The notes: generated by a model not told the origin, from the letters alone. 64,000 nt of DNA from Rhodothermales bacterium (GCA_951812345.1 OX638295.1:2542965-2606964), one strand, 5' to 3'; positions 1,841 through 59,495 are shown, numbered from the stretch's first letter. Numbers and translations are program-made.

Positions 1841-1986
1841 TTGGGGGTTTGAAATTATAACCATTCGATCCTAAGATACTTTTTTTGATATCGAATCAGG
1901 CATGTCTGTCAGCATCAAATGACATTGAATGAGCATATCTTACCTTACAATAGACCTCGCACGACGAAAATATAGAAGATTCGGCC

Positions 1987-2940
1987 ATGGGACTTGCAGA
2001 CTTGGTACAATGTGTTGAATTGCTGAAGGAACGCATTCAGTCGCATGGCGCCGCGTTGCGGGAAAACGAAACGCGCACGCGCATGGCGCTGATTGATCCG
2101 CTGCTGCATGCGCTCGGCTGGAACGTATCCGATCCCGGGGTTATTACGCCCGAGTACAGAGTGGCGGAAGGTTGGGCCGACTACGCATTGCTGCGACCCG
2201 ACGGAAGACCGGCTGCCACCGTAGAAGCCAAGAAACTTGGTGCGGGGCTGACCTCTCACCGGATGCAGATGCTCAATTATGCGAATGCGGCTGGCATTAC
2301 ATACGCCGGACTGACCGACGGAAACCATTGGGAGTTATACGATGTCTTCCGGCAGGCAGCGTTGGAGGAAAGGCGGATATTGGAAGTTTCCATCGCCGAT
2401 GCCCCGGCACACGAAAGCGCCCTGAAACTGCTGCTACTCTGGCGACCCAACCTTGCGTCCGGCCAGCCTGTACCAGCCGGCACACCGATTGTTGGCGAAA
2501 CTCCACGACCGACGCCAACGCCTGACGATGTTGAACTGCCGCCCATGCCACGGCCTGTATCCGCGGATTGGGTAGAATTATCCGAATACCATCCGCCAGG
2601 GGGTACCTCGTGCCCAACTGCCATCCGATTCTGGGACGGCAGCGAACGGCCCCTGAAGAATTGGAACGAAATACTTACCGATGTTGTGAGGAAACTCTAT
2701 GCGGAGCAATGGCTCACCCTCGAAGATGTCCCGATAGGATGGAGCAAGAAGGTATACAGCGTGAATACCAAGCCAGTTCACCCAACCGGCAAGCCATTCA
2801 TAAACTACAGAAACATAGAAGGAACGCCGCTGATCGTGAATGTGAACTTGAACGCGGGACAAGTCAGAAAAAACACCAAGAAACTGTTGGATCGCTTCGG
2901 CCAAAAATCCGCCAAGGTATATTTGCGGATAGCGAAATAA
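1987..2940 (+). CDS. HsdR_N-like (PD-(D/E)xK fold) domain protein with Pro-rich linker and unrecognised C-terminal domain
   Basis: The N-terminal ~150 aa (NETRTRMALIDPLLHALGW...ADYALL...ATVEAKKLG...) match my memory of the type I restriction enzyme R N-terminal domain pattern (D...E-x-K). The linker is PRPTPTPDDVELPPMPRP. The last 16 codons and the stop lie inside a repeat also present at 12312. Confidence 0.6.
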   Translation: MGLADLVQCVELLKERIQSHGAALRENETRTRMALIDPLLHALGWNVSDPGVITPEYRVAEGWADYALLRPDGRPAATVEAKKLGAGLTSHRMQMLNYANAAGITYAGLTDGNHWELYDVFRQAALEERRILEVSIADAPAHESALKLLLLWRPNLASGQPVPAGTPIVGETPRPTPTPDDVELPPMPRPVSADWVELSEYHPPGGTSCPTAIRFWDGSERPLKNWNEILTDVVRKLYAEQWLTLEDVPIGWSKKVYSVNTKPVHPTGKPFINYRNIEGTPLIVNVNLNAGQVRKNTKKLLDRFGQKSAKVYLRIAK

Positions 2941-3066
2941 GGCAATTCGGTCTGATTGAACAGATTCCGGCGGGAATTAAGGCGTACCGTTGCAACCTTG
3001 TTCCGACCCAATCAATCCGACGAAACCCATATCAAGACGCATGCGCAGAACCCACAGTCCTTCGTC
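2891..3066 (+). repeat. R-family mosaic repeat, copy a
   Basis: Aligns by eye with 12312-12487 (ATCGCTTCGGCCAAAAATCCGCCAAGGTATATTTGCGGATAGCG...ACCCACAGTCCTTCGTC). Its 3' two-thirds also align with 6453-6575, 7301-7407 and 7408-7490. Confidence 0.7.
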
Positions 3067-3208
3067 AGTCAGATCGAAGAACTGATTTTGAGGCCACTGC
3101 CGATCTGAAGATTCAGCACTGGCCTTAAGAAGATTGGAACAACTAGCCCGAGGGGGTTAAGCCGCTTTTGGGAACGGCCCTCTAGTCGCGACCCATAATA
3201 TTAAGATA

Positions 3209-4445
3209 GGGAATTACCGGTTTAACTTGACATTTTCAATGTAAGTTCTTATATTTACAGATAGTTAGAACGAATATAGAGAGGTCAAAAACATGGCTCA
3301 CAGAACACATCGAAACGGCATATCCGTAATGCAGTTGGCCGAGATGTTTCCCGACGAGGAAGCGGCCCGACGGTGGTTCGAATCCCGCATCTGGCCCGAC
3401 GGGCGCCATTGCCCGCGCTGCAAGAGCACCCGCACCCGCGAGGTGAAGGCTGCAAAGCCTATGCCCTACTGGTGCACCGATTGCCGGAAGTATTTCAGCG
3501 TCAGGGTTGGCACGGTCATGGAAGCCTCCCGGCTTCCGCTGCGCAAGTGGGTATACGCCATCTACCTGCACATGACGAGCCTTAAAGGCGTATCGAGCAC
3601 GAAGATTGCACGGGACATAGATATTCACCAGAGCAGCGCGTGGCATCTGCTCTAACGGATTCGCAAGGCATTCGACGCCGGAGAAGACAATCTCTTCGGC
3701 GGCCCGGTAGAGGTGGACGAGACGTTCGTCGGCGGCAAAGAAGCGAACAAGCACGAGTCGAAGAAGCTGCACGCAGGCAGGGGCGTCGTAGGCAAGACGG
3801 CAGTCGTTGGCGCAAAAGATCGGGCGACCGGCAAGATCAAGGCCGAGGTCGTCGAAGATACGACCGCCGCGACGCTGCATGATTTCGTGCTGGATCATAT
3901 CCTGTTCGGCACCCCCCTGTACACCGACGACAACCGGGCGTATACCGGCCTGCGGTACATCTACGACCTCGACACCGTGAAGCACTCCGTGGGCGAATAC
4001 GTGCGGGGCATGGTGCACACGAACGGGATCGAATCGTTCTGGGCCACGCTGAAGCGGGCGCACAAAGGCGTATATCACAAGTTCAGCAAAAAGCACCTGC
4101 ATCGCTACGTGCAGGACTTCGTTGGTCGCCACGACCTGCGCGATTACGACACGCTGGAGCAAATGGCCGAAGTTGCCCGGAGCATGACCGGCAAACGGCT
4201 CCGGTACGCGGACCTGATCGCATAAAACCTCATTGCCGGGCCATCGAGCCGTCCGGTGCGGCGTGAACATCCCGTCCCTTATTGAACGGGGGATCGGTAG
4301 CGATGAGGTCTACCTGTTCGGAGTTCATTGCTCGCATGAATGCGAGGTTTTCGCCTTGGAACAGCGTATGATTTGTTCAGGCAGATTCCATAGGCGGAAC
4401 ATACGGGCTGGATCAAGGACCCGTCAAGTTAACCCGGTAATTCCC
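3209..4445 (+). mobile_element. IS1595-family insertion sequence, copy 1 (transposase inactivated)
   Basis: IRL is GGGAATTACCGGTTTAACTTGAC (3209-3231). IRR is GTCAAGTTAACCCGGTAATTCCC (4423-4445). It is near-identical to copy 3. Confidence 0.85.
3293..4225 (+). pseudogene. IS1595 (ISXO2-like) transposase with premature stop
   Basis: Colinear with the intact 310-aa copy at 7622-8554, but codon 121 is TAA (3653-3655) where copy 3 has CAA (7982-7984). The ORF track splits it into 3293-3655 and 3713-4225. Confidence 0.85.
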
Positions 4446-4482
4446 TTAAAAAGGGCGTGTCCGCTAAACTGTGTAAGCGGGA

Positions 4483-4863
4483 TTATTGTTCGATGGGGAC
4501 TCTGTCCCCGTAGAGTATGACGAACTGGTTGAGGGCGGCCTTCCAGTCCCGGATCGGCCGCTTCCACTTCTTCGAGGCTTCGCGCAGGCCCAGGTAGAGC
4601 AGTTTGCGCACGGCGTCGTCGTTGGGGAAAGCGCCCCGTCCCTTGACGATTTTGCGCAGGCTGTAGTTCAGCGATTCGATCGCATTGGTGGTGTAGACCA
4701 CCTTGCGGATCGCAGGCGCATAGTCGAAGAAAGGCGCCAGACGCTCCCAGTCCTTCCTCCAGAGCGGAGCGATAGCCGGGTACTTCTCGCTCCATTGTCT
4801 CTCGAAAGCCTCGAGCGCCGCGAGAGCAGCCTCTTCGCTCGGCGCTGCGTAGACCGCGCGCAA
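4483..4863 (-). pseudogene. IS256/Mutator-family transposase, C-terminal 126-codon fragment
   Basis: ...AIRKVVYTTNAIESLNYSLRKIVKGRGAFPNDDAVRKLLYLGL...W is the characteristic IS256-family C-terminus. The N-terminal ~270 codons are absent. Confidence 0.85.
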
Positions 4864-4865
4864 AG

Positions 4866-5446
4866 ACGACGCCCCTGCCTGCGTGCAGCTTCTTCGACTC
4901 GTGCTTGTTCGCTTCTTTGCCGCCGACGAACGTCTCGTCCACCTCTACCGGGCCGCCGAAGAGATTGTCTTCTCCGGCGTCGAACGCCTTGCGAATCCGT
5001 TGGAGCAGGTGCCACGCGCTGCTCTGGTGAATATCTATGTCCCGTGCAATCTTCGTGCTCGATACGCCTTTCAGGCTCGTCATGTGCAGGTAGATGGCGT
5101 ATACCCACTTGCGCAGGGGAAGCCGGGAGGCTTCCATGACCGTGCCAACCCTGACGCTGAAATACTTCCGGCAATCGGTGCACCAGTAGGGCATAGGCTT
5201 TGCAGCCTTCACCTCGCGGGTGCAGGTGCTCTTGCAGCGCGGGCAATGGCGCCCGTCGGGCCAGATGCGGGATTCGAACCATCGTCGGGCCGCTTCCTCG
5301 TCGGGAAACATCTCGGCCAACTGCATTACGGATATGCCGTTTCGATGTGTTCTGTGAGCCATGTTTTTGACCTCTCGATGTTCGTTTTAACTATCTGTAA
5401 ATATAGGAACTTACATCGAAAATGTCAGGTTAACCCGGTAATTCCC
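4866..5446 (-). mobile_element. IS1595-family copy 2, 3'-truncated, inverted orientation
   Basis: The IRL complement is at 5424-5446. The transposase N-terminal ~165 codons (5362 down to ~4866) are near-identical to copy 3 (one C-for-R substitution, CKSTCTREV vs CKSTRTREV) up to ...KKLHAGRGVV. Homology then stops at the junction with the IS256 fragment. Confidence 0.85.
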
Positions 5447-5478
5447 TTTTGTTTCAATGTATATGTATGTTGAACATA

Positions 5479-5507
5479 TTGACAATATGCCGTAGCATAT
5501 TTTAAGT
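5479..5507 (+). promoter_or_regulatory. Candidate sigma70-type promoter for the cargo genes
   Basis: TTGACA (5479-5484), a 17-nt spacer containing the palindrome ATATGC-CGTA-GCATAT, then TTAAGT/TAAGTT. It sits in a ~32% GC stretch 85 nt upstream of the 5593 start. Motif reading only. Confidence 0.3.
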
Positions 5508-5592
5508 TATCGACAGCCTACTGTGATTCCCATACCTTAATCCCTCTAAGCTGTTCATTACGGAAGTAAATTAACAAAAAGAGGTGGAACTC

Positions 5593-5976
5593 ATGCGTAT
5601 TTACGAGACGAGAATAGTGGTGGTCGCTCTTGTGGCCTCCCTCTTTCTCATTTTGTCTGCACAGCATCCTCCAAAGGACGCTTCTGCACAGGTGGCAAAG
5701 GTAATGCTTGATTGTACCCCAAATATAGAAGGCGAATTGCCTCCTGGCTGTGGTGGTGGTGGTGTTGACGGAGGCGGAGGCGGATCAACAGGAACAACAC
5801 CTCCGCCAAGCGCCGGATCGTGCTGCGGCAATAACAAGGTGTGGATGGGGTCTTTTGGATGTATGTCGTGCTGGTCAATAGCCTTTACAGCCGGAATATC
5901 CGCAGGCTCTGTAAATGCTATTCTTGGAGTGGGTGTTGGAATAGGTACTTACATATGGTGCAGAGCTGCTTGTTAA
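5593..5976 (+). CDS. Small Cys-rich, Gly-rich membrane/secreted protein with C-terminal glycine-zipper-like segment (family not recognised)
   Basis: ATG at 5593 is preceded by AGAGGTGG. It has an N-terminal hydrophobic segment IVVVALVASLFLILSA, then GCGGGGVDGGGGGSTGTTPPP, 8 Cys, and a C-terminal AGISAGSVNAILGVGVGIGTYIW. The ORF track starts it at GTG 5584. Confidence 0.5.
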   Translation: MRIYETRIVVVALVASLFLILSAQHPPKDASAQVAKVMLDCTPNIEGELPPGCGGGGVDGGGGGSTGTTPPPSAGSCCGNNKVWMGSFGCMSCWSIAFTAGISAGSVNAILGVGVGIGTYIWCRAAC

Positions 5977-6005
5977 TCACAGAACAACCAGACCAAGGAG
6001 AAACG

Positions 6006-6368
6006 ATGAAACACGCGATCTTGGGCCTTTTGACAGTCCTTGTCATGGCGACGCCCTCTTGGGCTGACGACGAAAAAAATGCCAAAATCGGCCTTGTTGA
6101 AGTTCTTTCCGTTGAGATGCTCCCGTTTATTCGACCTTCGATTGTTCTTCAAGATACCGCTTTAGCCGCTGTGTTCTACGAAGAGCCTGCAGGATGTTGG
6201 ATGGAGCGCCAAGACCAAAGGCTGCACCTTGCCACTTACGTCCACCTTGTGGGAATAGGCATGGAGCTTCCTTACGACTGGACACTTGTTACCCTCGGTT
6301 CGGTTCTTGCCACAGACTATGCCATGTGCAAGATCAAACAGCGCAGACAAAGAAAGCGTGGCAAATAG
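6006..6368 (+). CDS. Small secreted protein with basic C-terminal tail (family not recognised)
   Basis: AAGGAG lies 5 nt upstream of ATG 6006. The signal peptide is MKHAILGLLTVLVMATPSWA and the tail is KIKQRRQRKRGK. It is in frame within track ORF 5841-6368. Confidence 0.5.
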   Translation: MKHAILGLLTVLVMATPSWADDEKNAKIGLVEVLSVEMLPFIRPSIVLQDTALAAVFYEEPAGCWMERQDQRLHLATYVHLVGIGMELPYDWTLVTLGSVLATDYAMCKIKQRRQRKRGK

Positions 6369-6404
6369 CACGTCACGCATTTTCGGAAAACAACGTTAAA
6401 GAAG

Positions 6405-6433
6405 GAGGGGGTTATCATGCCCCCTCTTTTTTT
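6405..6433 (+). terminator. Intrinsic terminator
   Basis: Stem GAGGGGG (6405-6411)/CCCCCTC (6420-6426), an 8-nt loop, then TTTTTTT (6427-6433). It lies 37 nt after the 6368 stop. Confidence 0.65.
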
Positions 6434-6452
6434 CAAGCATTCTTAGAGGTGA

Positions 6453-6637
6453 GAGGTGGTTCGGTTTGATTGGACAGATTTCGGCGGAATTTAAGGTGTA
6501 CTATTGCGACCTTATTCCGACGCAATCAACCAGAAGAGACCCATGTCAAGACACCCACGCAGAACCCATAGTCCTTCGTCCAAGGCGAAGGTAGAAATGG
6601 TCCGAAAAAACTGGACAGTTTCTCCGGACCATTTCTC
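6453..6637 (+). repeat. R-family mosaic repeat, copy b, ending in a 12-bp-stem hairpin
   Basis: GAGGTGGTTCGGTTTGATTGGACAGATTTCGGCGGAATTTAAGGTGTA...GTCCTTCGTCC aligns with copies a, c, d and e. The hairpin is AGAAATGGTCCG (6593-6604)/CGGACCATTTCT (6625-6636). Confidence 0.65.
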
Positions 6638-6711
6638 TTGATACAACGGCCTTCCATACTCCGGGCCATGACCGAAGATATGGCAACTTTCGTATATAAA
6701 TCCCTTCACCT

Positions 6712-7290
6712 ATGAAACGCCTTATACTTCTCTCGCTTTTTCTTTGCATCGCAGCTTCCGTTCATGCTCAATCGGCCTCGTCATGGACCGTAGGAGTGGG
6801 ATACACCGGCATGAAGTTTGTTAATGAAGTGTTCCCTTCGGGGATTTATCTCCAGTCGACAAGGAGAATAAACGGCCATATGGCTGCCGTTGTATCGGTG
6901 ACTAGGTATAGCAAGAACGAGATGGAAGAGGAAGAAGGATTATCCGCCGATGTAACCACTTCTTTTCTTGGCGCGCTCGGTGGAATCATGGTTGTGGCGC
7001 CCCTTACGCCGTCTCCGCTTAATTCGGGGGACTCATTTTTATATGGCACGGCGAAAATAGGTATGGAACGGTTGGAGGCAAAAGTAGAGATCAATATACC
7101 ATCTCTTGGCAACTCCAATATTGACAATTCAGAGAACGGTTTTGCCTTTGAACTTGGGGCCGGACTGCAAGCACGTATACGTCGGTATATAGCCTTGGAC
7201 ATGTCGGTAGCTTACCGCCGTAAGAATTATGAAGAGGATGTTTCGTTTAACAACTTTGTATGGTATGGAGGGCTGATATTCAGGCTATAG
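6712..7290 (+). CDS. Outer-membrane beta-barrel protein (OmpA-like/porin-type small barrel)
   Basis: The signal peptide is MKRLILLSLFLCIAASVHAQ. It shows an alternating hydrophobic beta-strand pattern and a C-terminal ...VWYGGLIFRL with terminal aromatic/hydrophobic residues. Confidence 0.65.
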   Translation: MKRLILLSLFLCIAASVHAQSASSWTVGVGYTGMKFVNEVFPSGIYLQSTRRINGHMAAVVSVTRYSKNEMEEEEGLSADVTTSFLGALGGIMVVAPLTPSPLNSGDSFLYGTAKIGMERLEAKVEINIPSLGNSNIDNSENGFAFELGAGLQARIRRYIALDMSVAYRRKNYEEDVSFNNFVWYGGLIFRL

Positions 7291-7300
7291 CAGGGCGGTA

Positions 7301-7537
7301 GAGGTGGTTCGGTTTGATTGGACAGATTTCGGCGGAATTTAAGGTGTAATGTTGCGACCTTGTTCCGACCCAATTAACCAGAAGAGACCCATGTCAAGAC
7401 GCACAAAGGTGGTTCGGTTTGATTGGACAGATTTCGGCGGAGTTTAAGGTGTAATGTTGCGACCTTGTTCCGAACCAATCAACCATTAGGAGAGAAATGG
7501 TCCGAAAAGACTGGACAGTTTTTCCAGCGTTTTTAAA
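7301..7537 (+). repeat. R-family repeat, copies c and d in tandem (d cut by IS1595 copy 3)
   Basis: 7301-7407 and 7408-7537 both begin (GA)GGTGGTTCGGTTTGATTGGACAGATTTCGGCGGA. Copy d runs into ...GAAATGGTCCGAAAAGACTGGACAGTTTTTCC and ends at the IS IRL. Confidence 0.65.
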
Positions 7538-8774
7538 GGGAATTACCGGTTTAACTTGACATTTTCGATGTAAGTTCCTATATTTACAGGTAGTTAGAAC
7601 GAATATAGAGAGGTCAAAAACATGGCTCACAGAACACATCGAAACGGCATATCCGTAATGCAGTTGGCCGAGATGTTTCCCGACGAGGAAGCGGCCCGGC
7701 GGTGGTTCGAATCCCGCATCTGGCCCGACGGGCGCCATTGCCCGCGCTGCAAGAGCACCCGCACCCGCGAGGTGAAGGCTGCAAAGCCTATGCCCTACTG
7801 GTGCACCGATTGCCGGAAGTATTTCAGCGTCAGGGTTGGCACGGTCATGGAAGCCTCCCGGCTTCCGCTGCGCAAGTGGGTATACGCCATCTACCTGCAT
7901 ATGACGAGCCTTAAAGGCGTATCGAGCACGAAGATTGCACGGGACATAGATATTCACCAGAGCAGCGCGTGGCATCTGCTCCAACGGATTCGCAAGGCGT
8001 TCGACGCCGGAGAAGACAATCTCTTCGGCGGCCCGGTAGAGGTGGACGAGACGTTCGTCGGCGGCAAAGAAGCGAACAAGCACGAGTCGAAGAAGCTGCA
8101 CGCAGGCAGGGGCGTCGTAGGCAAGACGGCGGTCGTTGGCGCAAAAGATCGGGCGACCGGCAAGATCAAGGCCGAGGTCGTCGAAGATACGACCGCCGCG
8201 ACGCTGCATGATTTCGTGCTGGATCATGTCCTGTTCGGCACCCCCCTGTACACCGACGACAACCGGGCGTATACCGGCCTGCGCTACATCTACGACCTCG
8301 ACACCGTGAAGCACTCCGTGGGCGAATACGTGCGGGGCATGGTGCACACGAACGGGATCGAATCGTTCTGGGCCACGCTGAAGCGGGCGCATAAAGGCGT
8401 ATATCACAAGTTCAGCAAAAAGCACCTGCATCGCTACGTGCAGGACTTCGTTGGTCGCCACGACCTGCGCGATTACGACACGCTGGAGCAAATGGCCGAA
8501 GTTGCCCGGAGCATGACCGGCAAACGGCTCCGGTACGCGGACCTGATCGCATAAAACCTCATTGCCGGGCCATCGAGCCGTCCGGTGCGGCGTGAACATC
8601 CCGTCCCTTATTGAATGGGGGATCGGTAGCGATGAGGTCTACCTGTTCGGAGTTCATTGCTCGCATGAATGCGAGGTTGTCGCCTTGGAACAGCGTATGA
8701 TTTGTTCAGGCAGATTCCATAGGCGGAACATACGGGCTGGATCAAGGACCCGTCAAGTTAACCCGGTAATTCCC
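7538..8774 (+). mobile_element. IS1595-family insertion sequence, copy 3 (intact)
   Basis: IRL is at 7538-7560 and IRR at 8752-8774, both the same sequences as in copy 1. It carries a single uninterrupted 310-aa transposase ORF. Confidence 0.9.
7622..8554 (+). CDS. IS1595-family (ISXO2-like DDE) transposase with N-terminal zinc ribbon
   Basis: CPRCKS...CTDCRKYFSVRVGT is the zinc ribbon. It is followed by an ISXO2-like core (VEVDETFVGGK...YTDDNRAYTGL...HTNGIESFWATLKR). Confidence 0.9.
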   Translation: MAHRTHRNGISVMQLAEMFPDEEAARRWFESRIWPDGRHCPRCKSTRTREVKAAKPMPYWCTDCRKYFSVRVGTVMEASRLPLRKWVYAIYLHMTSLKGVSSTKIARDIDIHQSSAWHLLQRIRKAFDAGEDNLFGGPVEVDETFVGGKEANKHESKKLHAGRGVVGKTAVVGAKDRATGKIKAEVVEDTTAATLHDFVLDHVLFGTPLYTDDNRAYTGLRYIYDLDTVKHSVGEYVRGMVHTNGIESFWATLKRAHKGVYHKFSKKHLHRYVQDFVGRHDLRDYDTLEQMAEVARSMTGKRLRYADLIA

Positions 8775-8826
8775 TTAAGATATTCAGGCAAGCAATATAA
8801 ATTTCATGAACGGTGAAGGTGACGCC

Positions 8827-9285
8827 CAAACACGCAGCACCCACAGTCCTTCGTCCGGGGCGAAGATAGCCCTCGCCCCCGTTCGCGGCGATAGCGCGTT
8901 GGCGGAGCTCATCGGAGCCCAATAATCTGTTTTTATCCCCTTTTGAGTAATTTTTATACCTTTTCGGTATATTTTCTCTCCTTTTTATGGGTAGTTTTTA
9001 CTCAAAAAGGCATATTAGGCGCACGGCGTACGTATGTCTTTGGACAGCAAAGGCCGTTGGATGGACAACGCGTACGTGGAGCGCCTCTGGCGCAACTCCA
9101 GATTTAACGGCGGGCCTACGAGACGGTAGGCGAGACCAGAAAGGAAATTGCCGGGCATCTGCGCTACTTCAACGAAGAGCGCCCAACAACGTATTCTACA
9201 AACGGAAACCGCTTGCCAAGGTGGCATAACCCGACGCGGCGCTGCACGTAAACCCACGAAAAAACAGTCCGGTTTTTTTGGACCA
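8827..9285 (+). pseudogene. IS3-family transposase (orfB) 3' remnant with right-end-like terminus
   Basis: It encodes ...DSKGRWMDNAYVERLWR (from 9052), then after a frameshift AYETVGETRKEIAGHLRYFNEERPQQ. This is the DDE 'E' region plus the YN..RPH tail typical of IS3 integrases. It is interrupted by a 74-bp palindromic insert and ends AAACAGTCCGGTTTTTTTGGACCA (9262-9285). Confidence 0.6.
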
Positions 9286-9366
9286 TTTCTCATAACGAGA
9301 TAGGTCTTCATAGGAACTTGCTTTGGTTGCAAAGCGGTTCAAGGACGTGAAGAGGCTCAAAAACCG

Positions 9367-10512
9367 ATGAACCGCGTCCCTGTCCAACCCAAACTGCTCT
9401 GCTGGGCGCGTGAGCGCGCCGGTCACAGTACCGATGCGCTGGCGCGCCGTTTCCCCAAACTCAACGAGTGGGAACGGGGAGAGGTGCAGCCGACGCTCAA
9501 GCAACTCGAAGCCTTCGCGAAGGCGACCCACGCACCGTTGGGGTTCTTCTTTCTTGCCGAGCCGCCGGCCGAACGTTTGCCGATTCCGGATTTTCGCACG
9601 GTCGCCAACATTCACATAGATCACCCGAGTCCGAATCTTCTGGACACTGTCTACCTCTGCCAGCAGCGCCAGGACTGGTACCGCGACTTCGCACGATCCA
9701 TGCATGAGCCGGCGCTGGACTTTGTGGGTTCTGCCAGTCTCGAAGACGATGTGGTCGAGACCGCCGCAACCATGCGGCGCCATCTTGGACTCGATCTTGA
9801 GGAACATCACCAACTCTCCACCTGGACCGATGCGCTGCGACGCTTCATCGAACAGGCGGATACGCTCGGCGTTTTGGTCATGGTCAGTGGCGTCGTAGGT
9901 AGTAACAACCGCCGCAAACTCGATCCCCAAGAGTTTCGCGGCTTCGCGCTGGCCGATCCATTGGCGCCACTGGTCTTCGTCAACGGCGCGGACACCAAGG
10001 CAGCGCAAATGTTTACCCTCGCCCACGAACTTGCGCACCTGTGGCTTGGGGAATCCGGCATCTCGAATGTCGAAGCACGGACCACTCCGGTTCAGGAAGT
10101 GGAGCGCTGGTGTAACCGGGTTGCGGCTGAGTTGCTGGCACCGCTCGCGGAGTTGCATGGCGAGTTCGACAATCATGCCAACCTGCAAGACGAACTCCAA
10201 CGTCTTGCGCGACGCTTCAAAGTCAGTACCCTGGTGATCCTCCGGCGAATTTACGACGCGGGTCTGCTCACGCAGGACGAACTCTGGGCCGAATACGACA
10301 CGGAACTCGCACGGCTGCAGGAATCGCTGAAAAGTAGCGGCGGAAACTTCTACCTGACGCTCGGTGCGCGCGTCAGCAAGCGCTTCGCCCGGGCGATGGT
10401 GGCAAGCACCCTTGAGGGCCGCACCGGGTTCACCGAAGCATTCCGGATGCTGGGCCTGAAGAAGATGAAAACGTTCAACGACCTTGGGCGCAATCTGGAA
10501 GTGATATACTGA
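9367..10512 (+). CDS. XRE-type HTH fused to ImmA/IrrE (COG2856) zinc metallopeptidase
   Basis: The N-terminal HTH is LLCWARERAGHSTDALARRFPKLNEWERGEVQPTLKQLEAFA. The HExxH motif occurs in FTLAHELAHLWLGESG. Confidence 0.85.
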   Translation: MNRVPVQPKLLCWARERAGHSTDALARRFPKLNEWERGEVQPTLKQLEAFAKATHAPLGFFFLAEPPAERLPIPDFRTVANIHIDHPSPNLLDTVYLCQQRQDWYRDFARSMHEPALDFVGSASLEDDVVETAATMRRHLGLDLEEHHQLSTWTDALRRFIEQADTLGVLVMVSGVVGSNNRRKLDPQEFRGFALADPLAPLVFVNGADTKAAQMFTLAHELAHLWLGESGISNVEARTTPVQEVERWCNRVAAELLAPLAELHGEFDNHANLQDELQRLARRFKVSTLVILRRIYDAGLLTQDELWAEYDTELARLQESLKSSGGNFYLTLGARVSKRFARAMVASTLEGRTGFTEAFRMLGLKKMKTFNDLGRNLEVIY

Positions 10513-11006
10513 TGACCTACCTCCTGGATGCCAACGTCTTCATATCCGCCAAGAACCTGCATTACGGCTTGGACTTCTGCCCGGCCTTCTGGGATTGGCT
10601 GGTGACCGGTAACAAGTCCGGGCGTGTCTTCAGTGTCGAGAAGTTAGGAGACGAATTGCAGGCGCTCGGAGACGAATTGTCTGAATGGGCCGCGAAACGA
10701 GGCAACGGGTTCTTCCTGCCGCCGGATGACTCCGTCTTCCCGGCAATGGCTGAGATCAGCGCTTGGACCACTCGCGGACAATATGAACCTGCGGCTGTGG
10801 ACACATTCCTGAAAGTTGCCGACTACTACCTCGTGGCACAGGCTCGTTCTGGCGGACACGCGGTCGTAACGCACGAGGTGCCGTCGGCTTCGACCCGCAA
10901 GATCAAGATTCCCAACGCCTGCATTGGTCTTGGCATCAAGTGCATGACCCCTTACGAGATATTGCGTCTGGAACGGGCACGGTTCGTTCTGGGAACTACC
11001 TCATGA
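10512..11006 (+). CDS. DUF4411 family PIN-like predicted nuclease
   Basis: The N-terminal MTYLLDANVFISAKNLHYGLDFCPAFWDWL is the DUF4411 signature as I recall it. The start overlaps the upstream stop by 1 nt (TGATG). Confidence 0.8.
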   Translation: MTYLLDANVFISAKNLHYGLDFCPAFWDWLVTGNKSGRVFSVEKLGDELQALGDELSEWAAKRGNGFFLPPDDSVFPAMAEISAWTTRGQYEPAAVDTFLKVADYYLVAQARSGGHAVVTHEVPSASTRKIKIPNACIGLGIKCMTPYEILRLERARFVLGTTS

Positions 11007-11149
11007 AATCCCCGCATCCCCCCACAGCGTATATTTAATATTTTCCCCCGCCTCCTACCCGATGGACTCCCGCCGATTTACTTTGGCGCCCACCTGAGGA
11101 TCGCGAACGCGGGAGTAATAACCTGCGAAACACCTTCAAACAAGTTCAC

Positions 11150-12022
11150 ATGATGACCGACATCGGAATTTGGGGAATCGACCGGGACTCCCGGGCCGGA
11201 ACCAAGCTCGACCTTGCCAAGCGTGTTGAGACGGAAGAGATGCTGGAAGACGTTCTGGTAGCGAACCCCAACATGTTGATGCGCAGACTCCAACTGGTCG
11301 GCAGGCAGGTTCCGGTGGAAACAGGATATGTCGACCTGCTGGGCATTGACGACGAGGGTCGGCTGACGGTCTTCGAACTCAAGCGCGAAAAGTTAACGAG
11401 AAAAGCCGTGGCGCAGGTGCTGGACTACGGCAGCTACCTGGAGGACCTGTCCGAATCGGAACTCGCAACCCTCATTGTCGAGGAGTCTGGCAATAACGGG
11501 ATCGACGAAATCACGGACTTCGACGAATGGTACGCAAGCCAGTGGGAAGGCTCTATCAAGCCCGTCCAAATGGTGCTGGTCGGCCTCGGAGCCGACGCGA
11601 ATGCCCGTCGAATGGTCGACTATCTGGCGGAGCGAGGCGTCGACATCGGTATCGTTACGTTCCATGGCTACGCCCACGGCGACGCCATGCTGCTGGCCCG
11701 TCAGGTGCAAACCGCAGACGATCCGCGGACCGGATCGGGCGGTCGCATCTCGAATCAAAAGGCCGCCGAGCAGGAAATGCATCGCAAGGCCGACGAGTAC
11801 GGAGTGGCGAAGCTGTTGCAGGATGTGAGGAAATCGCTGGACTACAGTGTGAAATCGTACTACACAAAAACCGGGATCACCTACCTGCAACGAACGATCA
11901 TATTGCCCGACGACGCGCATGTCCGCACCTCGCATTCCGTTAAGGTGGATGGTCCCGGAAAAATACGCATTATCTTCTCCCCGGGACCGTCGATCTTTGC
12001 CATGATCTGTTCGAGCAGCTGA
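11150..12022 (+). CDS. NucS/DUF91-like PD-(D/E)xK nuclease domain fused to an unrecognised C-terminal region; 3' end probably frameshifted (continues to 12228 in another frame)
   Basis: EEMLEDVLVANPNMLMRRLQLVGRQVPVETGYVDLLGIDDEGRLTVFELKREKLTRKAVAQVLDY follows the NucS C-domain pattern (D...E-x-K). The adjacent frame is open 11944-12228 and reads like a natural continuation (VDLCHDLFEQLKNAIPFE...). Confidence 0.7.
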   Translation: MMTDIGIWGIDRDSRAGTKLDLAKRVETEEMLEDVLVANPNMLMRRLQLVGRQVPVETGYVDLLGIDDEGRLTVFELKREKLTRKAVAQVLDYGSYLEDLSESELATLIVEESGNNGIDEITDFDEWYASQWEGSIKPVQMVLVGLGADANARRMVDYLAERGVDIGIVTFHGYAHGDAMLLARQVQTADDPRTGSGGRISNQKAAEQEMHRKADEYGVAKLLQDVRKSLDYSVKSYYTKTGITYLQRTIILPDDAHVRTSHSVKVDGPGKIRIIFSPGPSIFAMICSSS

Positions 12023-12311
12023 AGAATGCAATCCCGTTCGAGTCCGAGCTGCCGCGCAATCTATCTCCGACGCGCCGCGTTCGGAATCAGTGGTTTTGCC
12101 ATCTGGATAAGGAGACGTGGCAAAACCACAGGAAGCGCCTGATCGATTTTGTCAAGACCGTGCAGAAGGCCTTTGTCGACGAGCGAGAACGCGTAATATC
12201 CGAGTCCGAGGAGATCGGAGAACTGTAAGCGCGCCTTGACCTCAGGTCATCCGCACCCACTCGATGAACTCCTTATCCACTTTAGAGCCTCCTACACAGT
12301 TAAACGGACAC

Positions 12312-12812
12312 ATCGCTTCGGCCAAAAATCCGCCAAGGTATATTTGCGGATAGCGTAATAAAGGCGATTCGGATTGATTGGACATATTTTCGCGGAAATT
12401 AAGGCGTAATGTTTCGGCCTTGTTCCGTCTCAATCAACCCAACGAGACCATATCCAAGACAAACACGCAGAACCCACAGTCCTTCGTCCGGGGCGAAAGT
12501 AGCCCTCGCCCCCGTTCGCGGCAACAGCGCGTCGCCGGAACTCGCCGGAGCCCAAATAATCCGTTTTACCCCCTTTTGAGTAATTTCTATACCTTTTCGG
12601 TATATTTTCTATCCTTTTTATGGGTGGTTTTTACTCAAAAAGGCATATTAGGTGCACGGCGTACGCATCTCTTATAGACGGCAAGGGCCGTTGGATGGAC
12701 AACGCGCACGTGGAGCGCCTCTGGCGCAACTCCAGATTTAACGACGCGCCTACAAGGCGGTAGGTAAGGCCAGAAAGGAAATCGCCGGGCATCTGCGCTA
12801 CTTCAACGAAGC
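12312..12812 (+). repeat. R-family repeat copy e fused to a second IS3-family orfB remnant (direct duplicate of 2891-3066 + 8827-9180)
   Basis: 12312-12487 aligns with 2891-3066. 12460-12812 aligns with 8827-9180, including GRWMDNAHVERLWR (~12686) and the same 74-bp palindromic insert (12568-12641). Confidence 0.7.
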
Positions 12813-12950
12813 AGGCCCCTACCCCATCCCACTTTTCAACATCGGCGTTTTTCGATTGATCGGCCTCGCGATCTACCTTATTTTTAATGACGCCGACGCA
12901 AGGAGCCCGGCAGGAGGCGAATCCTATACCACGACAGGTGTATCAGACCC

Positions 12951-14180
12951 ATGTCCCGCCTCGAACAGAACAAGCAGCGCGAGCCTCACTCCCCCTTAGG
13001 TCGTGAACGTCATCGCCAGACCGGGATGGATGGCGACATTGGAGGGTTCTATGAATTCTTCTCCGGCGCAGGCATGGCGCGCGCCGGGCTTGGCAGCGGG
13101 TGGCGTTGCCTGTTCGCCAATGACATAGACCGCAAGAAGGCCGCCAGCTACCATCGCAACTGGGGCGGCGAAAATCTGGTTTGCGGCGATGTAAATGACG
13201 TTACCACAGGTGACCTGCCCGGCTACGCCGATCTGGCCTGGGCGTCCTTCCCATGCCAGGACCTGTCTCTTGCGGGTAGCGGCGCTGGCCTGAAAGGCGA
13301 ACGTTCAGGCACCTTCTGGCCCTTCTGGCGGCTTATGTTGCAACTCGCGCGCGAGTCCAGAGCGCCGAGCATGATTGTCCTTGAAAACGTATGCGGCGCC
13401 ATTACCTCGCACGGCGGCAAAGACTTTGAAACGATTTGCCGCGCTCTTCGCGATGGCGGTTACGGTTTCGGCCCGTTGGTCGTGAATGCGGCTCTGTTTG
13501 TCCCGCAGTCCCGCCCCCGCCTTCTGATTGTCGCGGTGAAAGATGATGTGATCGTGCCCAGTGCACTAACAGGCGAATTACCAGACGACATTTTCCATAC
13601 GCGCTCCCTCAAGGCCGCTTTCGGTCGATTACCGTCTGATTTGAAAGAAGCCTGGATATGGTGGAGACTCTCGGCTCCGCCAGCACATTCTATCGGTTTC
13701 TCCGATCTGTTTGAGGACGACCCTAAGGGCGTTGCCTGGCACACCACGGAGCAAACGCAAAGACTTCTCGACATGATGAGCGAGGTGAATCACGCAAAGG
13801 TTCGCTCCGCTCAACGTACAGGACGAAGAGTGATCGGCACGGCCTACAAGCGAACACGACGGGACGAATCGGGCCGCAGAGTGCAGCGTGCGGAAGTGCG
13901 TTTCGACAACATAGCGGGTTGCTTGCGAACGCCGGCTGGCGGATCAAGTCGCCAACTCGTCATTGTGGTTGAGGGCCGCAAAGTGCGGTCCCGGTTGATT
14001 TCCAGCCGCGAGACCGCGCGGCTCATGGGATTGCCCGACGAATACGTCCTCCCGGAAAACTACAATGAAGCATATCACCTGACAGGTGATGGGGTTGTGG
14101 TGCCTGTGGTTCGGTTTCTCGCGAACGAAATTTGTGAACCAATCCTGCTGGAAATGATGAGAGCGAGAGAGGCTGCATGA
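12951..14180 (+). CDS. DNA (cytosine-5)-methyltransferase
   Basis: It carries motif I FFSGAGMARAGL, motif IV SFPCQDLSLAG, motif VI VLENV and motif VIII QSRPRLLIVA, with C-terminal GDGVVVPV. The true start may be M26 (13026). Confidence 0.9.
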   Translation: MSRLEQNKQREPHSPLGRERHRQTGMDGDIGGFYEFFSGAGMARAGLGSGWRCLFANDIDRKKAASYHRNWGGENLVCGDVNDVTTGDLPGYADLAWASFPCQDLSLAGSGAGLKGERSGTFWPFWRLMLQLARESRAPSMIVLENVCGAITSHGGKDFETICRALRDGGYGFGPLVVNAALFVPQSRPRLLIVAVKDDVIVPSALTGELPDDIFHTRSLKAAFGRLPSDLKEAWIWWRLSAPPAHSIGFSDLFEDDPKGVAWHTTEQTQRLLDMMSEVNHAKVRSAQRTGRRVIGTAYKRTRRDESGRRVQRAEVRFDNIAGCLRTPAGGSSRQLVIVVEGRKVRSRLISSRETARLMGLPDEYVLPENYNEAYHLTGDGVVVPVVRFLANEICEPILLEMMRAREAA

Positions 14181-15034
14181 GCGTTATCCCTTGCGAATCG
14201 AACGAAGAGCTTGACAAGAAGATCAAAGACTTCGCGGAAACGCTGAAGACGGAATCTCATACGCTCGGCAATCACGGACTCGACGAAAAAGAGTTCTACA
14301 ACAGCGGGCTGTTCAGAGGCGCGATTGAGCGCATTCGCGGCCAGTTTGTCGCAACGATGCGGCAGAAGCGTGACTTCGTTCAGCACATCCTTGATCACAT
14401 GCAGGATCAGGGTTTCATCGACGAATGGACATCCACCGGCATGGGCAACAGGCACGACTACGAAGTGCAACTCCGGTCTGGCCGCACGGCCGTAATTGAA
14501 ATGAAGGGGTGTCTGGATGGGAATAACACCAATATCTTCGAGCGGCCGCCGAACGCCCACGAATTCATTATATGGAGCGTTTGCACAAATGTGGGGGCAG
14601 ACCCGCGGCGTAATGCCTGGTCCGGCATACATACGCGGCTGAGCGCTGAAATTATTTCAAGTGGGCAACTCGTAGATGGCATCGTGATCTGGGATATGGT
14701 TTGCGGCACGATCGGCCGACCATGTCCGAAACTCGTCAGCGATTCGTCCCGCAAAACTGTAGTGGGGCCGTTTTCCCTGCCCCCACCATGTCTGTATCTG
14801 CTGCCTGCGACGATTCCAAGTCCTCGCAATAATCCAAACCCTGAGCCCCAGGCACTCGCAGACGTTCAGATCATGCAAGCGTTCAATGATTGTTTTGGCT
14901 GCCAACCGGAAGAAATCAACCACGTCAGATTCGATGTGGCCTATCAGGGCTCCGATACGGTGCGGACAACACAGATCACGCGCAACGCCAGGATACAGAA
15001 AGAATCCGACCCGACGGTTATAGGGAGATCATAA
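14177..15034 (+). CDS. Putative type II restriction endonuclease (family not recognised)
   Basis: There is an ATGA start/stop overlap with the methyltransferase, and Vsr follows 2 nt later. A possible PD-(D/E)xK motif is HDYEVQL...AVIEMKG. The assignment is by operon context. Confidence 0.5.
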   Translation: MSVIPCESNEELDKKIKDFAETLKTESHTLGNHGLDEKEFYNSGLFRGAIERIRGQFVATMRQKRDFVQHILDHMQDQGFIDEWTSTGMGNRHDYEVQLRSGRTAVIEMKGCLDGNNTNIFERPPNAHEFIIWSVCTNVGADPRRNAWSGIHTRLSAEIISSGQLVDGIVIWDMVCGTIGRPCPKLVSDSSRKTVVGPFSLPPPCLYLLPATIPSPRNNPNPEPQALADVQIMQAFNDCFGCQPEEINHVRFDVAYQGSDTVRTTQITRNARIQKESDPTVIGRS

Positions 15035-15036
15035 CA

Positions 15037-15432
15037 ATGACTTCCGAGCAACGCAGCCGAGTCATGCGTGCCGTCAAGGATAAGGACACCGGAACGGAAA
15101 TGACCGTGCGCCGGCTCGTACATTCCATGGGATACCGTTACCGGCTGCATCGAAAGGACTTGCCGGGAAAGCCCGACCTGGTGTTCGGCCCGCGACGGAA
15201 GGTGATCTTCGTGCATGGATGCTTCTGGCACGGTCACACCTGCAAGCGTGGCGACCGAACGCCAAAGAAAAACCGACGCTACTGGACGAAGAAAATCGGG
15301 CGCAACAAGGAGCGCGATCAGGAACATGTATCGGCGTTGAAAGCGAAAGGCTGGCGAGTGCTGGTAATCTGGGAATGCGAAACGAAAGACACTGAACGGT
15401 TGGGAAAACGGGTACGGGCGTATCTGGCATAG
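15037..15432 (+). CDS. vsr: Very-short-patch repair endonuclease
   Basis: MTSEQRSRVMRAVKDKDTGTEMTVRRLVHSMGYRYRLHRKDLPGKPDLVF...IFVHGCFWHGH...W matches Vsr hallmarks. ATG 15037 is in frame within track ORF 14890-15432. Confidence 0.9.
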   Translation: MTSEQRSRVMRAVKDKDTGTEMTVRRLVHSMGYRYRLHRKDLPGKPDLVFGPRRKVIFVHGCFWHGHTCKRGDRTPKKNRRYWTKKIGRNKERDQEHVSALKAKGWRVLVIWECETKDTERLGKRVRAYLA

Positions 15433-15584
15433 CAGAACAGAGATGGATGAATGCATAAAAGCCATGCACCCGACAGTGATCGAGTAAATAGAAAAACGAA
15501 AATCCACCAAACCTCCCCACACCGTATATTGCCCCGCACCCCACCACCATTACCCCATGTGACCGACCCGACCCCACCCCTCCC

Positions 15585-25310: not shown

Positions 25311-25315
25311 TTATA

Positions 25316-25568
25316 GGATACTCTGATCAAAACCGCTTCGCCCAGCGCTTCACGTTCGCACGTCAGGACATCATGATTCCATCGTTGAAATCTGCGGAAA
25401 ACACTGAGGTTTCGGGCATCGCGGGCGTGAAGCGCCCTTCGGGAGGCTGCGAGAAGCGCGCTGGCTTTGTCATTCCTCATTGTGTGGGACCTGCCACACT
25501 GCTTCGTCATTCCTTGCCAGCGCGCCCCTCGCAAGCCTCTGAACTTTGCGGACTTGATCAGAGTATCC
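25316..25568. repeat. GGATAC-TIR element, full copy (MITE-like, 253 bp)
   Basis: Perfect 15-bp terminal inverted repeats: GGATACTCTGATCAA (25316-25330) and TTGATCAGAGTATCC (25554-25568). The internal core is shared with 45813, 53251 and 59321. Confidence 0.8.
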
Positions 25569-39007: not shown

Positions 39008-39040
39008 GGATACTCTGATCAAGACCGCTTCGCTCAGCAC
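39008..39040. repeat. GGATAC-TIR element, left-end fragment
   Basis: GGATACTCTGATCAAGACCGCTTCGCTCAGCAC matches the first 33 nt of the family. Confidence 0.6.
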
Positions 39041-45790: not shown

Positions 45791-45812
45791 TCCGACCTTT
45801 CGCTGCAGTTAA

Positions 45813-45960
45813 GGATGCTCTGATCAAGTCCACTTCGATCAGCGCTTCACTTTCACGCGTAAAGGACGATATGCTTGCATCGTTGAAACCAGCGAAAAAC
45901 ACGGCGGATTCGGGTTGTCTCGGCCATGAAGCGCCCTTCGGGAGGCTGAAAGAGGGGCGC
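45813..45960. repeat. GGATAC-TIR element, left end + core (no right TIR)
   Basis: GGATGCTCTGATCAAGTCCACTTCGATCAGCGCTTCAC...GAAGCGCCCTTCGGGAGGCTG aligns with the family core. Confidence 0.7.
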
Positions 45961-45998
45961 TATAAGAAGAAAAACGCCCTCGCATGGGAAGGATCGGG

Positions 45999-53211: not shown

Positions 53212-53250
53212 GGATTACGGCCAGTATGATTGCAATCTTTTGAGAATATA

Positions 53251-53399
53251 GAATACTCTGACCAAAACCGCTTCGCTCAGCACTTCACGTTCGCGCGTAA
53301 ACGACATCATGATTCCATCGTCGGAATCAAGCACTGCGAATTCGGGGCGTCGCGGACATGACGCGCCCTTCGGGAGGCTGCGAACTTAATCAGAGTTCC
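53251..53399. repeat. GGATAC-TIR element, short form with both (degenerate) ends
   Basis: GAATACTCTGACCAAAACCGCTTCGCTCAGCAC...GCGCCCTTCGGGAGGCTGCGAACTTAATCAGAGTTCC. Confidence 0.7.
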
Positions 53400-59312: not shown

Positions 59313-59320
59313 ATACTATA

Positions 59321-59495
59321 GGATACTCTGATTAAAACCGCTTCGCTCGGCATTGCACTTTCGCACGTAAGGGACGTCATGATTCTATCGTAGGAATCAG
59401 GGGAAGCGCTGCGAATTCGGGGCATCGCGGGCGTGACGCACCCTTCGGGAGGCAGAGAGCGGTGCAGGCGTGACGCGCCCTTCGGGAGGATGAGA
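59321..59495. repeat. GGATAC-TIR element, left end + core with internal 33-bp duplication
   Basis: GGATACTCTGATTAAAACCGCTTCGCTCGGC... is followed by the GCGTGACGC(A/G)CCCTTCGGGAGG module, present twice (~59431 and ~59468). Confidence 0.7.

Follow-up and report, generated by a model that had tools for sequence, protein, structure and literature searches.

An IS1595-family compound transposon with a carried piece of target DNA in a tRNA-Ser-adjacent island of a Rhodothermales bacterium

The 64,000-nucleotide stretch of a Rhodothermales bacterium genome analyzed here (GCA_951812345.1 OX638295.1:2542965-2606964; hereafter the window) carries, between positions 3201 and 8782, two copies of an IS1595-family insertion sequence (IS), designated IS_A and IS_B, which enclose 3,092 bp of other DNA (4446-7537; the cargo) and are bordered at their outer ends by the same 8 bp. 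A first-pass annotation of this DNA had described two direct IS1595-type copies of 1237 bp (3209-4445 and 7538-8774), and the coordinates, sequences and orientation given there are right to the base; re-reading of the sequence likewise bears out that the same 8-mer lies outside both outer ends while the inner flanks are unlike. The unit is a 5,566-bp IS1595-family compound transposon, termed "pseudo-compound" in stricter nomenclature because its two IS copies are directly oriented, and it is composed of the following parts.

3201-3208, unstranded: left copy of the 8-bp target-site duplication, TTAAGATA
3209-4445, forward strand: IS_A, IS1595-family, 1237 bp; transposase gene broken by an in-frame TAA at 3653-3655, fragments 3293-3655 and 3713-4225; left inverted repeat (IRL) intact
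7538-8774, forward strand: IS_B, IS1595-family, 1237 bp; intact transposase open reading frame (ORF) of 310 aa at 7622-8554; right inverted repeat (IRR) intact
8775-8782, unstranded: right copy of the 8-bp target-site duplication, TTAAGATA

The unit and its insertion sequences

Across the whole window and on both strands, TTAAGATA is confined to 3201-3208 and 8775-8782. The IS termini, GGGAATTACCGGTTTAACTTGAC and GTCAAGTTAACCCGGTAATTCCC, form 23-bp inverted repeats that agree at 22 of 23 positions. IS_A and IS_B lie in the same orientation and are 98.95% identical, with 13 mismatches in 1237 positions, the outermost of which are at IS positions 30 and 1142; the outer IRL of IS_A and the outer IRR of IS_B have the same sequence as the corresponding ends of the other copy. 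The inner flanks, TTAAAAAG (4446-4453) and TTTTTAAA (7530-7537), both differ from the outer 8-mer. Each single IS has flanks that agree at just 5/8 and 4/8 positions, respectively, with no duplication of its own for either, and it is the whole unit, not its single copies, that carries a duplication of the family length of 8 bp. The inner flanks were also considered as an inversion pair and rejected as such, TTAAAAAG and the reverse complement of TTTTTAAA sharing 7 nt only at a 1-nt offset.

The IS_B ORF (7622-8554) matches the Pfam domain DDE_Tnp_IS1595 (PF12762; 1.5e-39, 135.9 bits), the Pfam domain Zn_ribbon_IS1595 (PF12760; 30.5 bits against a cut-off of 25.4, residues 20-66) and the NCBIfam model transpos_IS1595 (NF033547; 169.4 bits against a cut-off of 75), and the predicted transposase is full length, its residues 1-310 or 4-310 aligning to relatives. 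With 1237 bp, one ORF and 23-bp inverted repeats, the IS falls within the short-repeat, single-ORF layout of 0.7-1.5 kb of the IS1595 family. IS_A, conversely, is a pseudogene: a C to T change at IS position 445 creates the in-frame TAA and splits the gene into 120-aa and 170-aa fragments, which appear as separate protein entries of the source contig. When the 13 differences are polarized against IS_C, a third and partial copy located in the cargo, and five metagenome copies, five prove to be transitions private to IS_A (including the nonsense codon) and one is a change private to IS_B, the remaining seven being polymorphisms common to other copies.

Relatives of the transposase in species-representative genomes occur in long-read metagenome-assembled genomes, many of them apparently sponge-associated, and the closest are in Rhodothermales. 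The closest representative genome, OX638293.1, has core flanks 92-94% identical to the window at the nucleotide level and contains an internally deleted copy of the same IS. The two nearest sister ISs reside in OZ252093.1, with proteins 75-76% identical and the termini GGGAATTA...GTTGAC in common. Since a generic inverted-repeat and duplication finder run on 78 related loci recovered just those copies with near-perfect inverted repeats, a hand-curated set of 13 full sister copies from OZ252093.1 (L009-L017, L024 and L082-L084) was used instead. An 8-bp AT-rich duplication is present in nine of these 13 copies, a 7-bp duplication in one and none in three; the duplications include AATTTTAA, AAAACAAA, CAAAAAAA, TTTTATTT, CTAAAAAA, TAATTTTT and TTTCGTTT, and more 8-bp duplications are found in related copies at L059, L071 and L078. 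The statement in the first-pass annotation that IS1595-family elements create 8-bp duplications therefore holds in the present IS lineage. Two pairs of independent OZ252093.1 copies have an equal flank 8-mer (AAAACAAA in one pair, TTTCGTTT in the other), which, together with the three copies without a duplication, indicates a strong target preference and frequent IS-IS recombination in the lineage. The near-identical IS copies in L001 and L021, the latter internally deleted, show no clear duplication. No DNA match to the IS was obtained in the plasmid collection, and an inverted-repeat pattern scan of viral contigs gave no match.

Original target and present locus

The unit lies in a variable island (1846-15576) located directly downstream of tRNA-Ser(GCT), between atpG and glpK, and it is surrounded there by two further layers of sequence: short segments that appear to be carried from an original target (X-left and X-right) and the two parts of a decayed IS3-family element.

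2946-3066, forward strand: IS3-family remnant with an internal deletion, 5' part comprising the left inverted repeat and the orfA start; recipient of a 5,766-bp block
3044-3066, forward strand: left copy of a 23-bp direct repeat that bounds the 5,766-bp block, CGCAGAACCCACAGTCCTTCGTC
3067-3200, forward strand: X-left, putative carried original target context; last ~16-20 codons of a DUF3800-family gene and downstream region, 82.9% identical to L098 402-511
8783-8832, forward strand: X-right, putative original target context of the other side; first ~18 nt colinear with L098
8833-8855, forward strand: right copy of the 23-bp direct repeat, beginning CGCAGCACCC, one mismatch
8856-9291, forward strand: the IS3-family remnant again, 3' part, with orfA/orfB debris and the right-end hairpin

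The homologous locus L098 is another variant of the same island, reached via the closest homologue of the neighboring M78 peptidase, and in it the two outer flanks of the transposon are joined: window positions 3085-3208 and 8783-8800 are colinear with L098 ~395-531 at ~83% identity. The junction reads CATAATA-TTAAGATA-block-TTAAGATA-TTCAGGCAAGCAA in the window and CATAATA-TAGGGTA-TTCGGGCAAGCAA in L098. As the outer flanks are adjacent in L098 with one diverged target copy between them, the IS-cargo-IS block is judged, with high confidence, to have gone into one site as a whole. The earlier proposal that the block inserted as a single unit is thus upheld, by the contiguous flanks of L098, by the 8-bp duplications of IS relatives and by the precedent of Tn7052 (PMC7835479); its further implication, transposition into the present chromosomal locus, is contradicted by the larger 5,766-bp insertion in which the transposon sits. 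The first-pass annotation had also put the chance identity of the two outer 8-mers at 1/65536, which, although the identity itself is correct, is too optimistic because the IS lineage targets AT-rich sites: the chance of equal 8-mers is ~2.5e-4 with the base frequencies of 12 close-relative duplications and ~1.4e-3 with the published Tn7052 site profile (PMC7835479), compared with 1.5e-5 without bias. Given this bias and the flank 8-mers shared by independent OZ252093.1 copies, the argument from coincidence is weaker than it had been made to appear, and the homologous empty site in L098 renders it unnecessary.

X-left contains the C-terminus of the DUF3800 gene (...ADLK[IV][QR]HWP*) followed by ~75 bp of downstream DNA, and L098 402-511 covers the 3' end of a DUF3800 gene with the adjoining downstream DNA; beyond position 8800, X-right has no significant similarity to L098. 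X-left is not found in the syntenic loci L094, L095, L006, L007 or L008. An origin of X-left and X-right as a diverged, circularly permuted IS3 orfA region was also tried and rejected, the local alignments being no better than those of shuffled sequences. From these comparisons, the original target appears to be the region downstream of a DUF3800 gene and not the present locus.

At the present locus, the insertion amounts to 5,766 bp (3067-8832), made up of the 134 bp of X-left, the transposon and the 50 bp of X-right. The cassette into which it is set, consisting of an HSDR_N-like gene and the deleted IS3 remnant, is 99.3-100% identical in L094 and L095 to window 1846-3066 and 8833-9246, with core flanks at 91-95%, and in both loci the IS3 remnant is uninterrupted (...GCGCAGAACCCACAGTCCTTCGTC directly followed by CGGGGCGAAG...). 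L094 derives from JGI metagenome 3300002734, and its contig prefix, "PetF," suggests a sample of the sponge Petrosia ficiformis. The IS3 remnant is likewise continuous in the more distant syntenic loci L006, L007 and L008, where rve_3 fragments are called at the matching place, and in a paralogous module at window 12312-12818. The 23-bp repeat corresponds to the start of IS3 orfA, of which a full-length parent with orfA and orfB exists in L013 (11650-12950). At the right junction, 28 nt (AAACACGCAGCACCCACAGTCCTTCGTC) agree with the paralogous copy at 12.3 kb at 27/28 positions, and this junction looks like the product of recombination with another IS3-type copy; the left junction, inside the 3' end of the DUF3800 gene, looks illegitimate. 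As a separate observation, the IS3 left inverted repeat and orfA start form a repeat family of ~120-140 nt in the window (2946-3066, 6454-6594, 7302-7400, 7407-7485, 12362-12502 and 8831-8869).

The cassette differs from L094 by only 0.3-0.7%, and IS_A and IS_B, with their 13 differences, are therefore no fresh duplicate born at the present locus. Because the IS copies stand 1.05% apart, one of them decayed, in a cassette so close to its relative, the most economical reading is that the transposon was already old when it arrived passively with a piece of its former target. This relocation may have taken place by homology-facilitated illegitimate recombination between allelic island variants, by Campbell-type entry of a circle through ~23-28 bp of homology, or by template switching. 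A more general model, which is speculative and at present rather unlikely, holds that decayed IS3 remnants and their miniature inverted-repeat transposable element (MITE) derivatives act as recurrent landing pads, at which circular or linear pieces of one island variant, IS1595 compound transposons included, are caught by another via ~23-28 bp of homology; if true, it would constitute a cassette-shuffling mechanism for the tRNA-Ser island of sponge symbionts.

Cargo and surrounding island

The cargo comprises the following features.

4446-4452, unstranded: 7-bp spacer, TTAAAAA, separating IS_A (right end) from the end of an IS256-family remnant
4453-4865, reverse strand: IS256 (Mutator) family remnant; terminal inverted repeat GGGCGTGTCCGCTAAACTGTGTAAG and last 126 transposase codons
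4866-5446, reverse strand: IS_C, third IS1595 copy, inverted, IS positions 1-581 only; 97.6-97.8% identical to IS_A and IS_B
5593-5976, forward strand: ORF of 127 aa from ATG, orphan; N-terminus signal-peptide-like, Gly- and Cys-rich (Gly run, many Cys)
6006-6368, forward strand: ORF of 120 aa, near-orphan; no Pfam or NCBIfam match
6448-6640, forward strand: MITE-like IS3-family derivative; left inverted repeat and orfA start fused to the right-end hairpin
6712-7290, forward strand: outer-membrane beta-barrel protein (OMP) gene, 192 aa; Pfam OMP_b-brl
7297-7537, forward strand: IS3-derived MITE pieces, two in tandem and both partial, at 7297-7400 and 7403-7537, the latter abutting the left end of IS_B

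The inner junction sequences of the block are CCCTTAAAAAGGGCGTGTCC, the ACGACGCC fusion and CCAGCGTTTTTAAAGGGAATTACC. The IS256 remnant matches Pfam Transposase_mut (2.1e-25) and NCBIfam transpos_IS256, full copies in OZ252093.1 are 93-96% identical to it, and its end is confirmed by comparison with L014. At 4858-4873 it is fused to IS_C through 8 bp of microhomology, ACGACGCC, which indicates a microhomology-mediated deletion. Copies of the IS1595 type are repeatedly located 7-40 bp from an IS256-family end, namely at window 4445-4453 and, in OZ252093.1, at L014 10959-10999 and in L016, and this closeness may reflect a common liking for the same AT-rich spots.

Two adjacent ORFs of the cargo, at 5593-5976 and 6006-6368, are both near-orphans. 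The first has no Pfam or NCBIfam match and no homologue at E<=1e-3, and the second has ten distant matches among 1.84 billion representatives (29-38% identity, mostly of similar length). It is conceivable that they encode a secreted peptide and a partner protein. Downstream, the OMP gene (6704-7292) is ~84.5% identical at the nucleotide level to a gene in a conserved core locus of relatives (TatD-SpoIID-AP_endonuc_2-TMEM220-OMP-Sua5-...-DnaK-...-RecA). The homology stops close to the start and stop codons, a few bases away at most, and the sequence on either side in the window is IS3-derived MITE sequence. Since the cargo copy is the sole OMP homologue recorded in the protein collection for the 2.82-Mb source contig, the gene has probably been moved into mobile DNA rather than duplicated; if it is indeed the only copy, a gene of housekeeping context has been captured by mobile DNA. 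The 120-aa and 127-aa ORFs (the latter as a 130-aa form with a GTG start) were compared with TMEM220, the neighbor of OMP in the core locus, and are not TMEM220. The cargo is no adaptive module, being mostly IS debris with two orphan ORFs and a displaced OMP gene. No second copy of it exists among the loci fetched, its proteins were found in the source contig only, and its matches in the plasmid collection are limited to the IS256 remnant and are distant.

The island around the transposon is itself variable. OX638293.1 and L097 have no island at all, the version in L094 is 3.6 kb long, and L006, L007 and L008 have DUF5343 and HEPN genes in addition, while the island of L098 contains DUF3800, two bPH_2 genes, an IS256 remnant, M78, a NucS-like gene and an 856-aa ORF. 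The window island is a mosaic of L094-like and L098-like segments: identity to L098 is 97% in the 5' half of M78 and in the NucS-like gene, and the 3' half of M78 together with DUF4411 is closer to L094. A second block that is not present in L094 extends over 11022-15500, looks like a restriction-modification cassette and includes the following features.

11150-12022: NucS-like gene
12312-12818: second IS3-remnant module, including 50 nt of the 3' end of an HSDR_N-like gene
12951-14180: Dcm
14177-15034: 285-aa ORF
14890-15432: Vsr

Elsewhere in the window, an unrelated family of dispersed repeats of ~140 nt is present at 25312-25452, 45809-45961, 53247-53383 and 59317-59453, with a short fragment at 39008-39038. 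These four to five copies are 74-83% identical (to 94% for the short fifth fragment) and have no Rfam match at gathering thresholds.

Routes of entry and comparison with known systems

The proposed course of events begins with the transposase of an intact copy, which today would be that of IS_B alone, acting on the two outer inverted repeats, the left one of IS_A and the right one of IS_B. IS_A-cargo-IS_B would then have moved as one piece into the AT-rich 8-bp TTAAGATA, duplicating these 8 bp, at a site that lay ~75 bp past the end of a DUF3800 gene, within one variant of the tRNA-Ser-adjacent island. Later, the transposon with 134 bp and 50 bp of its old target would have been copied or recombined into the IS3-family remnant beside the HSDR_N-like gene, yielding the 5,766-bp insertion between 23-bp repeats, probably through short-homology or illegitimate recombination between allelic island variants. 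That the original insertion occurred by composite transposition specifically is given about an even chance, and several points weigh against this course of events. The empty site predicted by the first-pass annotation has been recovered as a homologous site with contiguous flanks but not as the exact 30-mer, which is absent from the metagenome contigs of the Joint Genome Institute (JGI) and from the syntenic loci of relatives; the exact sequence expected downstream of the DUF3800 gene is ...CATAATATTAAGATATTCAGGCAAGC, and DNA pattern scans of the JGI metagenome contigs gave no match to the left flank with target, CGCGACCCATAATATTAAGATA, or to an internal 22-mer of X-left. Identity to the L098 homologue is just ~83%, and TTAAGATA of the window corresponds there to the 7 nt TAGGGTA. 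The same unit was found at no second site among the loci fetched, and its mobility is therefore a prediction. No IS1595 activity accounts for the 23-bp repeat around the larger block, and a circle of one IS plus cargo recombining into a resident single IS gives the same end product. To our knowledge, the transposition chemistry of the IS1595 family has not been established.

The circle route, in the form of a translocatable unit, is a tenable though less probable alternative to composite transposition. A single IS1595 copy would first have inserted at TTAAGATA with its duplication, and a circle of IS and cargo, excised elsewhere from between two direct copies, would have recombined into this resident copy. 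Such an event yields precisely the observed structure, with the old duplication on the outside, and it fits the direct orientation of the IS copies, the IS-IS recombination that is evidently frequent in the lineage (3/13 OZ252093.1 copies without duplication), the mixed shared polymorphisms of IS_A and IS_B, as chimeric copies would have, and the inner flanks, which are unlike each other and the outer ones as the halves of two other duplications would be. The same route has been proposed for ISApl4/Tn7560 (PMC12561309). No locus fetched contains the single-IS intermediate at the TTAAGATA site, however, and the route shown experimentally for an IS1595-family pair is recA-independent transposition of the unit (PMC7835479). 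The first-pass annotation had named both mechanisms: entry as a unit is supported under either, and the present data do not separate the two.

An unresolved cointegrate would also leave direct copies within an outer 8-bp duplication, this being the signature of replicative transposition into TTAAGATA of an IS on a small circular donor, the rest of which became the cargo, with duplication of IS and target. This origin is improbable, in that a cointegrate starts out with two identical copies, and those of the window are separated by 13 differences in 1237 positions beside a cassette that is just 0.3-0.7% removed from L094; the cargo, moreover, consists of IS debris and chromosomal genes with no replication function in Pfam and NCBIfam scans, and replicative cointegrate formation is not documented for the IS1595 family. 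Two independent IS insertions around DNA that had always lain between them, with outer 8-mers equal by coincidence, gain something from the AT-rich target preference, which lifts the chance of identity to the ~2.5e-4 to 1.4e-3 given above, and from the 8-mers shared twice among independent OZ252093.1 copies. This account is nonetheless close to refuted and very improbable: the outer flanks are contiguous in L098 with the target alone between them, neither IS has a duplication of its own (5/8, 4/8), and the cargo is absent from every syntenic relative. Since the lineage is uncultured and represented by metagenome assemblies only, a collapsed or mis-joined repeat in a metagenome-assembled genome might in principle feign an IS-cargo-IS arrangement. 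An artifact of this kind is scarcely credible here, as 13 differences tell the IS copies apart, each of the four junctions is unique in sequence, the source contig reaches 2.82 Mb and related assemblies are long-read contigs, and a biological event accounts exactly for the duplication and the L098 empty site.

Whole-unit insertion, the reading preferred here, makes this locus a clean natural case of an IS1595-family pair moving chromosomal DNA as a unit, away from the clinical resistance setting. It also illustrates the aftermath of such a movement, in which one flanking IS degenerates, IS debris accumulates in the cargo, and recombination passively relocates the transposon between variants of a tRNA-adjacent island. 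This island holds restriction-modification and other defence-like genes, and the host lineage is rich in ISs. For genome scans, the lesson is that a perfect target duplication proves unit insertion somewhere, though not necessarily at the present locus. No current understanding is overturned by the unit.

Among systems of similar topology are the pseudo-compound transposons and translocatable units of IS26, an IS6-family element whose cointegrate/conservative mechanism is defined. They resemble the present unit in their direct orientation, 8-bp duplication and possible entry of a circle into a resident IS; membership of this type is excluded because the window transposase is of the IS1595 family (Pfam, NCBIfam) and not IS6, leaving the topology alone in common. 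Within the IS1595 family, direct repeats of IS1016 reportedly bracket the cap locus of Haemophilus influenzae type b as a compound transposon, as Kroll and colleagues are said to have described in 1991. That locus likewise has direct IS1595-family repeats around chromosomal genes, but is much larger (~18 kb) and amplified by IS-IS recombination, and no such amplification is seen in the window.

Two IS1595-family compound transposons are closer counterparts. Tn7560, formed by ISApl4 in Actinobacillus pleuropneumoniae, is a compound transposon of the IS1595 family for which a circle route has been discussed too (PMC12561309). A pseudo-compound unit of 5,765 bp, it resembles the window unit in overall size and in its direct copies of an IS1595-family element (IS1016 group), single insertions of which make 8-bp A/T-rich duplications and which has many genomic copies, some of them without a duplication via recombination. 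In contrast to the perfect duplication of the window unit, the bounding ISApl4 copies in AP_123 have no 8-bp duplication, and ISApl4 is much smaller (712 bp) and its cargo consists of resistance genes. Tn7052 (ISEc69-mcr-2-pap2-ISEc69) has direct IS1595-family copies, transposes whole in a recA mutant, leaving 8-bp AT-rich duplications in which A/T is fixed at positions 1, 2, 7 and 8 (PMC7835479). The window unit shares with it the two direct IS1595-family copies around a few kb of cargo, the sufficiency of one functional transposase, in the window putatively that of IS_B, and an 8-bp AT-rich duplication, TTAAGATA fitting the Tn7052 profile. The transposase of ISEc69 has 217 aa, whereas the window IS, of 1237 bp, encodes one of 310 aa with an N-terminal zinc ribbon; Tn7052 carries a resistance gene where the window unit has IS debris, an outer-membrane protein gene and two orphan ORFs; and the window unit, whose mobility is predicted where that of Tn7052 has been shown, has one flanking copy that is already a pseudogene and resides in an uncultured sponge-associated Rhodothermales lineage. 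IS1595-family compound transposons are thus already known experimentally from Tn7052 and Tn7560, and the window unit adds one to a known sort; what is new here is that recombination probably carried the transposon, with a bit of its original target, into a decayed IS3 element of a variable island at a later time.

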